Virus record (IMG/VR): IMGVR_UViG_2534682162_000012
Length of the DNA stretch: 35,791 bases
Strand: one strand, 5' to 3'
From: a virus
Taxonomy: Duplodnaviria > Heunggongvirae > Uroviricota > Caudoviricetes
Shown here: in pieces, positions 26,226-30,368 of the stretch
Layout of the letters: each line of letters begins with the position of its first letter
Numbering within the stretch: the stretch's first letter is position 1
Program-made: the position numbers and the translations under genes
The notes under the pieces: model-generated
Seen by the model: only the letters and a program-made list of their open reading frames with translations
Database searches by the model: none
What the model was told of the DNA's origin: nothing

Positions 26226-26564
26226 CTATTTCCCTGAATTTACGACGAAACTGTTCGAGCGGACTGAAGCACTCATGCTCATAGCCTTCGCGGAGGTAGA
26301 TAACCCGTTGTGTTTCCGGTTCCCAACGAATGACTCTGACGGGCACTCCGTAGTGATCTTTGAACCAGCGGTTAACTTGTCGCAAAGGACTGTCTCCTTC
26401 TGCCGGTTGAAATCACCCACAGCCCACTCTGCAAAGCTGTGGGTTACAATTTCCCTGTCACCTGGTACATTTACTGCATAGCAATACTCCACCTTCGCTT
26501 TTCCACCCGGTACAGGAAGCGCAATCAGTTGCGAGCGACGGTAGTGTGTTGTTAAACTGTTCAT
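26226..26564 (-). CDS. Hypothetical protein (112 aa, YmfM-like)
   Basis: ORF between the regulator block and the initiator; length matches e14 YmfM from memory. Confidence 0.4.
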
Positions 26565-27145
26565 GCGTTAGTTTCTCCACAGTCACGACACGCCACGGCG
26601 CCCGGAGCTGCACACTCGCGGGCGTCATTACTTTCTGAAATGCAAAAGATTTTGTAGACCAGTGCTGCATGCTCCTGCAGCTTCGAAATTGAGAGGTACA
26701 GCTCGTCGTTAATTGCTGTTTTCTCATGCGGTTCCACTACACCGTCTTCGATTGCTGAACGAATCTGTTTTGAATAACTGCCGATCTGTTCAATGACTTC
26801 CAGCAGACGCTGGTTAATATCGGCGTTGTCCACATCCTCGACGTCAGGAAGAGACACAAATACGCCATTTGCAGACTGCGCCACAGCATCAGCAATGAAG
26901 TGAGTGCCACCAGCACGCTGTAAAACCATTGCCCATCCCAGCGGGAAAATCTGATCGCCATCGGCACGAAGGCGGTTAAATAATGCGCTCTCTGTTACAT
27001 CCAGCCAGTCAGCAGCTTCAGCGTAACCCCCCGGCAACGCTGCGATAGTTTTTCTGACAGCTTTCACGTACCACTTAGGCTGTTTTTCTACTTTCCAGTG
27101 ATGCTTACCCACGGCTATCTCCTTAAAACTGTGGTTACTTTTCAT
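26561..27145 (-). CDS. Putative early regulatory protein (YmfL/CII-like)
   Basis: Start chosen at the internal ATG ([17 protein letters not shown]...) directly downstream of the Cro-like gene; function inferred from position only. Confidence 0.4.
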
Positions 27146-27383: not shown

Positions 27384-27518
27384 AGCTTTCTCCTTTTTAG
27401 GTAGTTAAGTTGTTACGAGTTGCAAGAATACAACATTAACAACTTTTATCACAACTTTTAGGTGTTGGAAAGCTAAAACATAAAGTTGTAACCTCATCAA
27501 AAAAGAGAGGGATATGTT
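27384..27518. promoter_or_regulatory. OR-like operator/promoter region between cro and cI
   Basis: Heptamers AAGTTGT (27407, 27483) and ACAACTT (27439, 27451) arranged symmetrically as AAGTTGT-N25-ACAACTT-N5-ACAACTT-N25-AAGTTGT. Confidence 0.55.
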
Positions 27519-28205
27519 GTGAAAACACTGGCAGAACGATTAAAGATAGGTAGAGAGAAAGCTGGCATGAGCCAAGCTCAACTAGCTGAAAAAATTGGAC
27601 TTTCACAACAATCTGTAGCCAAAATAGAGAATGGCGAAACTCTACAACCGCGCAAAATTAAAGAAATTGCAAAAGTTTTAGGTGTATCACAAAAGTGGTT
27701 ACAACTTGGTATTGAAGACAACGCATCCATACCTGATCTTGTTGTAAAAGAAGCAGAAAGCACCGCATTAGACCCCGATATTTTCGTAAACATTCCTGTT
27801 TTAGATGTCGAGTTATCGGCAGGTAACGGATGTCTGGCTGAAATAGTTGAATCAGCTATTGACTGGTTTCCGTTAAGAAGAGCAGATTTGAGAAAATCTG
27901 GCGTATGTGCATCTAATGCCAAGATCGTAAAAATATGGGGGAACAGTTTATTACCGGTTCTCAATAATGGAGATCTTGTTGCCGTTGATATTTCTCAAAC
28001 CGTTCCTATTCGTGATGGCGATCTTTATGCCGTACGAGATGGTGTATTGCTAAGGGTTAAAATACTTATCAACTTACCTGACGGTGGCTTGATTCTTAGA
28101 AGCTTCAACAAAGATGAGTACCCAGATGAAATACTCACCTTTGAAGATAGACGAGCCAGAATTCATGTTATAGGTAGGGTATTCTGGTCATCGCGAACTT
28201 GGTAA
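27519..28205 (+). CDS. CI-like repressor (XRE HTH plus S24 LexA-like peptidase domain)
   Basis: GTG start with AAGAGAGGG RBS; N-terminal HTH (MSQAQLAEKIGLSQQSVAKIENGE) and C-terminal S24-like autocleavage domain with Ala-Gly-type cleavage region. Confidence 0.85.
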   Translation: MKTLAERLKIGREKAGMSQAQLAEKIGLSQQSVAKIENGETLQPRKIKEIAKVLGVSQKWLQLGIEDNASIPDLVVKEAESTALDPDIFVNIPVLDVELSAGNGCLAEIVESAIDWFPLRRADLRKSGVCASNAKIVKIWGNSLLPVLNNGDLVAVDISQTVPIRDGDLYAVRDGVLLRVKILINLPDGGLILRSFNKDEYPDEILTFEDRRARIHVIGRVFWSSRTW

Positions 28206-29078
28206 TGCATCGAAAAGCATTTCTTCAGAAATAATTTTAAGTTTTGCACCATTATCATCCCTATAAGATATAGCCTTTTCGATCTTCCTTCCGTGACTTG
28301 AGAATTTCCAATCACGGGAGGAAAGCGTCCCAATTACTAAAAAATCCAACTTTTGAGTAATTCCACTACTGATGTTCCCACCAGCATTTTTAATCAAATT
28401 TTCAACTACGGCTCTCTTTCCTGCAACAAAAGTGCCTGTAAGACAATAGGTTTTACCCTCTAACTCTATCGAAGCCCCTACATCAATAGGCAGCCTGGTC
28501 GCCAAACCATCCACCACCCCACTTTCCAAGTCACATCCTGTGAAGTCTACTAATGCCTTATGTAGAGTTAAACTCTCATCTTCAGTAATAACACCATCTT
28601 TAAGAATTTCCTTTACAAGTGCATAAAGTTTTTTTCCTGGGTAGTTGTTCTTCAAAGCTCCATTTTGCTCAAGCCACCAATTAAGATATCTTATTTCTTC
28701 TTGAGTTAAGTTCCGATCAGCAATTAATCCTTTACATAGTCCATTAAGTAAATGGACATCTACATCCTTGGAGTAAAAATCAATTTCAGGGATATCAAGA
28801 ATTTCCCTCTGTATTTGGAGAAGGCTATTTTTAAGGTCATCACGTTCTTCTGATGTGATTATTCCATCCGCAAGAATATCCGACACCCGTGCTGATAGAC
28901 TTTTTATAACTCCATTATTGATAATCTGCTTTGCTTCAAGTAACCATGTATCTAAGTAAAGAACCTCCTCTTCACGGACAACTCCATCTGCAATGATTCC
29001 ATCAATGATGCTAATCAAGTTAGCAAATAACTTGTCCCGGTTCTGTGTGTAATTAAAAGCGTAAAGCGCGTCTTCCAT
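28188..29078 (-). CDS. Tandem-repeat protein with C-terminal BRCT domain (296 aa), accessory
   Basis: Start at ATG 29078 (MEDALYAF...) with AAGGAGG RBS; four repeats of about 45 aa (DG(V/I)(V/I)..EE...L..WL); C-terminal GKTYCLTGTF...DFLVIG BRCT-like fold; AT-rich by eye; overlaps cI 3' end by 18 nt. Confidence 0.65.
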   Translation of the reverse strand: MEDALYAFNYTQNRDKLFANLISIIDGIIADGVVREEEVLYLDTWLLEAKQIINNGVIKSLSARVSDILADGIITSEERDDLKNSLLQIQREILDIPEIDFYSKDVDVHLLNGLCKGLIADRNLTQEEIRYLNWWLEQNGALKNNYPGKKLYALVKEILKDGVITEDESLTLHKALVDFTGCDLESGVVDGLATRLPIDVGASIELEGKTYCLTGTFVAGKRAVVENLIKNAGGNISSGITQKLDFLVIGTLSSRDWKFSSHGRKIEKAISYRDDNGAKLKIISEEMLFDALPSSR

Positions 29079-29135
29079 ACAACCTCCTTTTTTTGATAAT
29101 CCTTGCACTCCTTGGCTACTCGTTCAAACCACATA

Positions 29136-29200
29136 AAGTTGTTGACAACATTCAAAACCACAACTAAATTACAACTTAAAGGTGTTAAAACAACGAACAG
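29136..29200 (+). promoter_or_regulatory. OL-like operator with pL-like promoter
   Basis: Consensus -35 TTGACA (29142..29147), 17-nt spacer, -10 TAAATT (29165..29170); carries the same AAGTTGT and ACAACTT(A/T)(A/T)AGGTGTT motifs as the cro/cI intergenic region. Confidence 0.5.
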
Positions 29201-29280
29201 GCAGGACGCCCACGAAGTAGCCGCCGGTGGCGTATGAATGACCGGATGATTCGTTAAATACTATGTGTAAGAGAGCGCAA

Positions 29281-29931: not shown

Positions 29932-30186
29932 TTGATTTTCCTTTTATGTATACGGGCTTAAAAGGATACCACCGAGCCTGAAGTGGTGAAAAGACAGGCA
30001 CATAACAGCTAAGTATTTTCAACCAAAGAGAATCCTTAGCGTTGTGGTGAATGCGGCTCAGCGCACGCGGGTTAAGGTTGAGGCTGACAGTCGACCTTCT
30101 GTGGATACCCACCCGTCTGGTGTGCAACCTTCGCCAGGCACCGGGAGGCACCCGGCACCACAACTTTATGCTGTGTGTAGTCCTGG

Positions 30187-30231
30187 CGGTACCAGTTTGT
30201 ACCCTTGCTTCCGGCTGGTACCGTCCTTTTT
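30187..30231 (+). terminator. Intrinsic terminator-like hairpin in the early-left operon
   Basis: Perfect 9-bp stem CGGTACCAG/CTGGTACCG (30187..30195, 30215..30223) with 19-nt loop, then TCC and TTTTT. Confidence 0.45.
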
Positions 30232-30368
30232 ACAAAACAGAGAAGAGCATCACCGGACGACGGGCTCATAACCCAATCCATCCGGGCGGCTGCTACCGCA
30301 GGTGTTCTTCTCTGTTTTGTGGAGAAACTAATCGGCCTTGCAGGGTCGATATGATGAGGAGCAGCAAA

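Follow-up and report, generated by a model that had tools for sequence, protein, structure and literature searches.

A conserved repeat-BRCT gene convergent with cI in a prophage immunity region: a possible exclusion or defense protein

Here we report on a gene in the immunity region of a lambdoid prophage, contained in a stretch of 35,791 nt (IMG/VR record IMGVR_UViG_2534682162_000012) that we call the window and from whose first letter all positions are counted. The gene (28188..29078, minus strand) lies tail to tail with the cI repressor gene and encodes a 296-aa protein in which helical repeats precede a BRCT domain. We show that it is a real, conserved, protein-coding gene, and we tentatively suggest that its product is an accessory of the immunity cassette that the lysogen makes and that acts against incoming or competing phage DNA, in exclusion or defense, by sensing DNA ends or nicks. 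The gene already has an annotation, which names its domain only, and the family to which it belongs (Orf2 of Vibrio phage K139; PHROG 3989) is known but essentially uncharacterized. What is new here is the fixed convergent cassette of cI and the BRCT gene, a predicted promoter that mimics that of cI, the link to the defense candidate PDC-S48, and the swappable effector neighbors of the family.

The coding sequence (891 nt, stop codon included) carries the PGAP annotation WP_000389078.1, with the product name 'BRCT domain-containing protein'. A mechanically called open reading frame (28188..29108, minus) opens at a GTG; the start is the ATG at 29078, 4 nt past the Shine-Dalgarno sequence AAGGAGG (29083..29089, minus), which is kept in 12 of 13 diverged variants and shifted by one base in the other (L076). 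PGAP has the same coding sequence, and this ATG is used in 48 complete E. coli genomes, across which the 1.9-kb region is at least 99.4% identical. The host element is a prophage integrated at tRNA-Thr and adjoining proA. The convergent partner is a lambda-type cI repressor gene (HTH_3 + Peptidase_S24; 27519..28205, plus), past which come a YdaS/Cro-like gene and a CP76/CII-like gene (ymfL). The two genes overlap tail to tail by 18 nt (28188-28205), and the BRCT gene has cI on one side and an OL/PL-like control region on the other, which is the position of rexAB in lambda, but with the orientation reversed. The layout described in the original prediction, which had been made from the letters alone, is borne out by these coordinates in its convergence with cI, its overlap, its ribosome-binding site and its rexAB-like position. 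That prediction had also singled the gene out as AT-rich, which holds against the window as a whole (G+C 0.38 versus 0.505) but not within the cassette: cI (0.40) and cro (0.42) are similarly AT-rich, so that the bias is a property of the whole immunity cassette and not of the BRCT gene alone.

In all 80 related IMG/VR loci (80/80) the BRCT gene converges with a homologue of cI, after which comes cro, and the identities of the BRCT and cI products to those of the window fall roughly in parallel (100/100, 92/93, 83/85, 76/81 and 69/72%). The exceptions are L076 and L077, in which a 71-72% identical BRCT gene is paired with a 50-57% identical cI; the PL-side flank is variable among the 80 loci. 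The gene is intact in 78 of them, the other two (L032 and L033, of the 92% variant) having in common a nonsense codon that interrupts the BRCT domain at residue 242 (gene at 2237-3124 in L032). Non-synonymous divergence amounts to 0.14-0.25 where synonymous sites are saturated; the ratio of non-synonymous to synonymous divergence (dN/dS) for L005 versus L032 is unreliable, as the internal stop in L032 shifts the codon alignment. A chance reading frame or a pseudogene is ruled out by the 78 intact loci, the kept ribosome-binding site and promoter elements, and the low non-synonymous divergence. The same evidence agrees with the earlier claim that the gene is functional and speaks against a history of broken homologues, while the label 'moron' once attached to it does not fit, the gene being a fixed part of the cI-cro cassette in this lineage and not variable cargo.

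A word-indexed search returned 354 relatives; the best 120 of these 354 are 68-100% identical, nearly all 292-300 aa long, and come from Escherichia, Kluyvera, Citrobacter, Serratia, Klebsiella, Enterobacter, Salmonella, Cronobacter, Plesiomonas and others. An exhaustive profile search gave 2,053 cluster representatives at E <= 1e-10, 392 of them at E <= 1e-30, the family being spread over the Gammaproteobacteria and beyond, and conservation of the full-length protein reaches down to 30% identity. Family members take the form of proteins of about 295 aa, of shorter ones of about 210 aa with a single repeat pair and the BRCT domain, and of longer fusions carrying either an N-terminal DEDDh exonuclease or a C-terminal LigA-like helix-hairpin-helix (HhH) module with a second BRCT domain. 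PHROG 3989 (function unknown) aligns with positions 2-295 of the 296 residues of the window protein (E 1.5e-128). In deposited phages, relatives of full length are confined to Orf2 of K139 and its kin; Pseudomonas phages and one Sulfurimonas phage have shorter ones. Such a gene had been thought unusual in phage immunity regions, but the family is found there repeatedly, in both P2-like and lambdoid prophages, the hosts being Vibrio, Aeromonas, Oceanimonas and many Enterobacterales.

To compare the control region of the gene, the upstream sequences of 13 variants were aligned; the identity of their proteins to that of the window is 69-100%. The alignment alternates spacers that vary with invariant blocks: the two OL operator-like sites with the PL hexamers, TTGAnn, TGnAAGGAT, and AAAAAAGGAGG with the ATG. 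The PL-like sigma-70 promoter (TTGACA-17-TAAATT; 29142..29170, plus) is divergent from the BRCT gene. Its PL-proximal operator-like site, ACAACTTAAAGGTGT (29171..29185), is conserved in sequence among the variants, and the PL-distal one, ACAACTTTATGTGGT in the minus-strand reading (29128..29142), overlaps the -35 of PL and abuts the predicted -35 of the BRCT gene. The heptamer AAGTTGT occurs 14 times in the window against 4.9 expected, a count that no shuffle reaches; four of the copies lie between cI and cro, and two, at 29136-29177, flank the PL-like promoter.

On the minus strand, TGnAAGGAT lies exactly 17 nt past TTGAnn (29127-29122), less critical positions being free to vary. We read these blocks as a putative -35 element, TTGAAC (29122..29127, minus; TTGA invariant), and a putative extended -10, TGcAAGGAT (29099..29107, minus; TG, -11A and -7T invariant in the 13 variants), 17 nt apart, and the conserved footprint TTGAnn-17-TGnAAGGAT is consistent with a weak extended -10 promoter starting near 29092. 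The operator ACAACTTTATGTGGT is centered near -43 and abuts this -35, the same geometry in which OR2 of lambda abuts the -35 of PRM. The layout of operator, -35, spacer, -10 and leader found upstream of cI (27450..27510, plus) is mirrored upstream of the BRCT gene: the 61 nt at 29084-29144 (minus) match the cI upstream region with 36/60 ungapped identities in the same register, a match that is unique in the window and that none of 5000 shuffles reaches (0/5000). The common register ends in a AUCAAAAAA-GAGG leader; the cI-upstream spacer has an extra operator-like site, AAAACATAAAGTTGT, that is absent from the BRCT copy. Because the BRCT promoter mirrors the cI upstream region and abuts an OL operator, we suggest that its activity is compatible with CI or activated by it, and that in the lysogen a second PRM-like promoter, placed back-to-back with PL, would drive the BRCT gene.

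The BRCT domain itself (residues 205-291; 28206..28466, minus) scores 29 bits with the Pfam BRCT model (PF00533) over residues 206-290, against a gathering threshold of 21.3, and the predicted structure has the BRCT alpha/beta fold; the domain call made earlier has therefore been upheld by profile and by fold. When a profile of 23 homologues was compared with the PDB, the BRCT domain of RFC1 (E 5e-5) and those of Rad4 (Rad4/TopBP1-type) were the closest solved sequence relatives, and the closest viral structural matches, among structure models, were the BRCT domains of NAD-ligases. Residues T214-G215, R222 and R255 align with the TG...R...K positions of RFC1 and are invariant or at least 90% conserved among relatives down to about 32% identity. 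In RFC1, the TG...R...K/R positions of the BRCT domain contact the 5'-phosphate of DNA. T214-G215, R222 and R255 are candidates for a BRCT phosphate pocket (S/T-G after beta1, basic residue at alpha2), and ligand binding by them is putative. The C-termini of LigA and of Pol III epsilon-BRCT proteins are, like RFC1, among the nearest sequences. The phosphorylated partners named in the original prediction are not specifically supported: because the nearest sequences include the BRCT domains of DNA-binding RFC1 and of NAD-ligases, a DNA end or nick is at least as likely a ligand as a phosphoprotein.

The likeness to RFC1 (p140) and LigA, which rests on the best sequence matches in the PDB, on NCBIfam and on viral structure models, and on the kept TG...R...K/R positions, extends over a common domain of only about 85 residues; the window protein has no clamp-loader or ligase catalytic module, and a DNA ligand for its BRCT domain is suggested only putatively by the comparison. 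The NCBIfam ligase and Pol III epsilon models match the BRCT stretch alone, at 20-30 bits against cut-offs of 369-1051, the LigA-type match covers only residues ~175-255 (20-28 bits), and no further Pfam domain is present in the protein. Scans with Pfam and NCBIfam found no LigA adenylation, OB-fold, zinc-finger or HhH domain in it. Annotation as a ligase or as Pol III epsilon was rejected on these grounds; relatives are often named 'NAD-dependent DNA ligase' in databases.

An AlphaFold2 model built on a 42-sequence alignment (predicted local distance difference test, pLDDT, 83.5) shows helices at residues 2-94 and 104-180, a disordered linker at 183-194 and the BRCT alpha/beta unit at 205-291. 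The first predicted four-helix bundle (residues 2-94; 28797..29075, minus) is formed by the first two repeat units, both of which carry an [AK]DG-x-[IV]-x(3)-E motif, and the second (residues 104-180; 28539..28769, minus), formed by units 3 and 4, is a duplicate of the first according to hhalign; a flexible linker of low confidence (residues 183-194, pLDDT < 50; 28497..28532, minus) leads to the BRCT domain. In profile-profile comparison with hhalign, residues 8-100 match residues 101-195 at 97.9% probability (E 3.6e-13), and among the sub-units the matches of 1 with 3 and of 2 with 4 (95-96%) exceed those of 1 with 2 and of 1 with 4 (80-87%). Each half of the protein consists of two helix hairpins bearing the DG-x-[IV]-x(3)-E motif. 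The four repeats of ~45 aa that had been noticed in the sequence are therefore real by hhalign, but they are arranged as a duplicated hairpin pair, that is, as two four-helix bundles. One such hairpin (28803-28905, residues 58-92) gives weak profile matches to YmfL/CII-type regulators (NCBIfam NF041471 at 1.6e-4; PHROG 6499 at 6e-5), one of which is encoded 1 kb off, at 26561-27112; kinship of the repeats with this neighboring CII/YmfL protein was rejected, the pairwise comparison not being significant (E 0.41). The hairpins also resemble TerB or SHOCT helical motifs, an identity that we did not adopt, as there was neither an above-threshold profile match nor a specific fold match.

The closest parallel in a studied phage is Orf2 of K139 (NP_536630.1; kp3 of phage Kappa), which is 301 aa long against 296 aa for the window protein and likewise has two repeat pairs and a BRCT domain; tblastn to orf2 gave 33% identity at 95% coverage (E 1e-38), and both genes adjoin cI in the immunity region. 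A review cites K139 Orf2 for superinfection immunity. The two genes differ in their setting. K139 is P2-like, and its orf2 is co-directional with cI in the PL lysogenic operon, upstream of glo and int, whereas the window gene is convergent with cI, is not co-transcribed with it and has its own cI-promoter-like promoter, as predicted above, at OL. The 1999 abstract by Nesper et al. is said to agree with the link between K139 Orf2 and superinfection immunity.

A search with PADLOC gave a sole match, to the defense candidate PDC-S48 (PDLC05027; model positions 239-377, E 2.4e-7). Scanning the fusion proteins of the family resolved the model into a DEDDh exonuclease, a repeat and a BRCT domain: the exonuclease-bearing proteins P0198, P0250 and P0209 match its N-terminal part, from positions 1-8 up to 164-295, with matches of family members that have this domain spanning model positions 1-260, and the window protein covers the part made of a single repeat pair and the BRCT domain, as does K139 Orf2. 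PDC-S48 differs in its N-terminal DEDDh 3'-5' exonuclease, which the window protein does not have; the latter corresponds to PDC-S48 minus the nuclease.

In its position, between cI and OL/PL, and in its presumed expression in the lysogen, the gene resembles lambda RexAB, 434 Hex, 933W Stk, P22 SieB and BTP1 BstA. No homology to RexAB, Hex, Stk, SieB or BstA was found, PADLOC having returned PDC-S48 only. Unlike rexAB and hex, which are co-transcribed with cI from PRM, the window gene is on the opposite strand, and unlike RexAB it specifies a single predicted soluble protein, with no membrane component in this prophage. Some distant BRCT relatives adjoin a K+ channel gene, a pairing that recalls the RexA sensor and RexB channel by analogy; such neighbors are limited to two distant relatives.

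The surroundings of other family members add to this picture. The order in K139 is cI-orf2-glo-int, within a mapped PL lysogenic operon, and the P2-like layout of repressor, BRCT gene, cargo and int is found also in Aeromonas, in Oceanimonas and in a metagenome prophage (L101). In the Oceanimonas P2-like prophage, GmrSD_N and HEPN genes follow the BRCT gene; in L101, which has a 186-type CI, it is followed by K+ channel, AIPR and TIR genes. The gene that comes after the BRCT gene in the Aeromonas prophages was considered as a K+ channel homologue and rejected, no homology having been found. Two more lambdoid prophages (one in Oceanimonas smirnovii, one on a read-assembly contig) have a cI operon with cargo and a BRCT gene convergent beside OL; each carries copies of its own operator sequence ahead of that gene. 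A BRCT relative adjoins AbiEi/AbiEii in Shewanella, and in Sulfurimonas phage SNW-1 a thermonuclease gene comes after a short-form BRCT gene.

At loci L090 (1-5588), L091 and L092 the BRCT gene belongs to an operon that also encodes a 1980-aa helicase of the DUF4011 family, an 871-aa SMC-like ATPase (AAA_23), a 210-aa DEDDh protein (RNase_T) and a K+ channel. The integrative element that bears it codes for an integrase and an HTH-Peptidase_M78 regulator as well; this operon looks like a candidate undescribed multigene defense system. Its small K+ channel (L090, 4887-5588) and that of L101 (5483-6190), both with a TVGYGD filter, are 57% identical in different mobile contexts, the channel gene being co-directional with the BRCT-family gene in one context and convergent with it in the other. 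Further members, 32-35% identical (L094 and L097-L100), stand in a non-mobile synteny of thiolase, UGSC, a 480-aa unknown, BRCT, ABA4-like and Band_7 genes, which recurs in several genome or metagenome assemblies, one of them labeled Gammaproteobacteria, and in Photobacterium a family member stands alone on the chromosome. Chromosomal synteny suggests a cellular role for part of the family.

Based on these observations, we favor, still tentatively, an exclusion or defense function. Homology to K139 Orf2, the position in the lysogeny module of two unrelated phage types and the defense-gene neighbors lead to this reading, as do the relationship to PDC-S48 and the fact that the module is repeatedly found paired with nucleases or a K+ channel. 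We infer expression in the lysogen, the ligand and the exclusion phenotype from K139 Orf2 homology, genomic context and promoter geometry, and from these the 'lysogen-expressed sensor or exclusion factor' of the original prediction appears as the best-supported reading. In the proposed mechanism, CI bound at OL would turn off PL, and the BRCT promoter, back-to-back with PL, would stay free or be stimulated, its operator abutting the -35 as does OR2 at PRM of lambda. The RFC1/NAD-ligase-type BRCT domain would then read 5'-phosphorylated DNA ends or nicks. Since injected linear or cos genomes would expose such ends and an integrated prophage would not, end-reading would be harmless to the phage's own prophage. 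The two N-terminal four-helix bundles may oligomerize the protein or recruit a partner, and the outcome would be either that ends are capped and circularization or ligation blocked, or that a nuclease or other effector is recruited. A specific mechanism of end-capping or of competition with LigA is considerably less likely than the exclusion or defense class as such.

Several observations weigh against an exclusion or defense protein made from a PRM-like promoter. The BRCT promoter would be a weak one, and a scan for strict consensus called no minus-strand promoter. In the other lambdoid subfamily the BRCT gene and the operator upstream of it are some 170 nt apart, which means that the PRM-like geometry is not general. 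The window protein has no enzymatic or membrane domain, and there is no adjoining effector in this prophage. The gene is fixed to a single immunity type and does not vary as hotspot cargo would. Some family members stand in the conserved non-mobile chromosomal synteny described above, and these may argue for a role in cellular DNA metabolism, perhaps borrowed by phages. In the literature we found no experiments on this gene or on any enterobacterial member, and a search for BRCT together with prophage, defense, superinfection, abortive infection or lysogeny returned nothing experimental on the family beyond K139; no papers naming PDC-S48 were found, and it is a computational candidate only.

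The BRCT protein could instead regulate the lysis-lysogeny switch of its own prophage, sensing DNA damage or ends and modulating CI stability, RecA-dependent induction or the establishment of lysogeny, with other phages unaffected. The cI-cro linkage in 80/80 loci with its broadly parallel divergence, the construction of the predicted BRCT promoter like that of cI at a shared operator, and the fact that cI is an S24 autocleaving repressor are all in keeping with such a role, and a 2026 preprint on Roseobacter prophages reads regulatory cassettes of cI and a BRCT gene as DNA-damage modules, a suggestion made without test. The family, however, also follows 186-type CI, which has no S24 domain, and has members far from any repressor (beside AbiE, in the exonuclease/SMC-like/helicase/channel operon, and in the chromosomal synteny). 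Co-divergence is not strict, given the 71-72% identical BRCT genes paired with 50-57% identical cI in L076 and L077, and linkage inside a recombination cassette explains co-inheritance without functional coupling. We regard a switch regulator as unlikely. A protein serving DNA repair or replication in the host or prophage, such as an adaptor that binds nicks or ends on behalf of the host's ligase, polymerase or exonuclease, would account for the fusions to a DEDDh exonuclease and to LigA-type HhH and BRCT modules, for the non-mobile synteny in several gammaproteobacterial genomes and the lone Photobacterium gene, and for the database name 'NAD-dependent DNA ligase' of many relatives. It fits poorly with a protein that lacks a catalytic domain and reaches only 20-30 bits with ligase and Pol III epsilon models set at 369-1051, with a gene that is housed in an immunity cassette under a cI-like promoter and not among replication genes, and with the citation of K139 Orf2 for superinfection immunity in a review; we give it a rather poor chance.

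The remaining alternative places the function in RNA, the convergent transcripts being mutually antisense over the 18-nt overlap and acting as a transcriptional-interference switch, with the protein secondary. The tail-to-tail overlap measures 9-18 nt in nearly all variants (the exception, L077, has a gap of about 190 nt), and with 3' ends that overlap, a terminator cannot be accommodated between the genes. The minus-strand RNA forms a 15-bp hairpin (28109-28143) within the cI 3' coding region, 45-80 nt beyond the stop codon of the BRCT gene, with UUGUUGAA after it. The region has a fold z-score of -3.17, and the hairpin is stronger on the BRCT-sense RNA because of four G-U pairs. From its sequence it could be a terminator of the BRCT transcript. 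As a conserved terminator it was rejected, two stem changes in L052 being uncompensated, and so was a cI-sense hairpin at 28285-28324, which shows no covariation. Both failures count against an RNA-level role, as do the strong conservation of the full-length protein, down to 30% identity, and the co-directional arrangement of the BRCT gene with cI in P2-like phages, and we consider such a role very improbable.

Past PL, a 68-nt block (29189-29256) is 85-98% identical in SfV, SfII, SfIV, ST64B, mEp460, Yersinia YeP1-3 and others, and most of these records carry no annotation over it. In SfV, a terminator and then this post-PL block come directly after cI, with no gene between. No structured RNA was found in the block by folding (z-score 0.09) or as an Rfam match; the block probably marks a boundary of mosaic recombination or serves as a leader of PL. 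Further along, at 30019-30234 (plus), there is a match to the gammaproteobacterial sRNA family STnc100 (RF02076) over the full model length at 39.5 bits (E 2.6e-6), below the gathering score of 47.

A bolder form of the exclusion or defense reading, which we put forward as speculation and think doubtful in its entirety, is that the repeat-BRCT unit is a portable sensor of foreign DNA ends or nicks with interchangeable effectors (a fused or adjacent DEDDh exonuclease, a thermonuclease, or a K+ channel paired as in RexAB), here without an effector of its own and turned on by CI from the second PRM-like promoter at OL, and that it would exclude superinfecting cos or linear phages, both capping the ends of their DNA and competing for these with host LigA. 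The window protein is the smallest form of the module common to PDC-S48, and its gene is a tractable entry point, in E. coli, into the mechanism of the family. If the exclusion or defense reading is right, a widespread single-gene prophage function would become directly testable in E. coli, a eukaryote-style BRCT reader of DNA ends would be linked to phage exclusion, and the promoter at OL would be a second example of a repressor-positioned, PRM-like promoter driving a lysogen-expressed gene.

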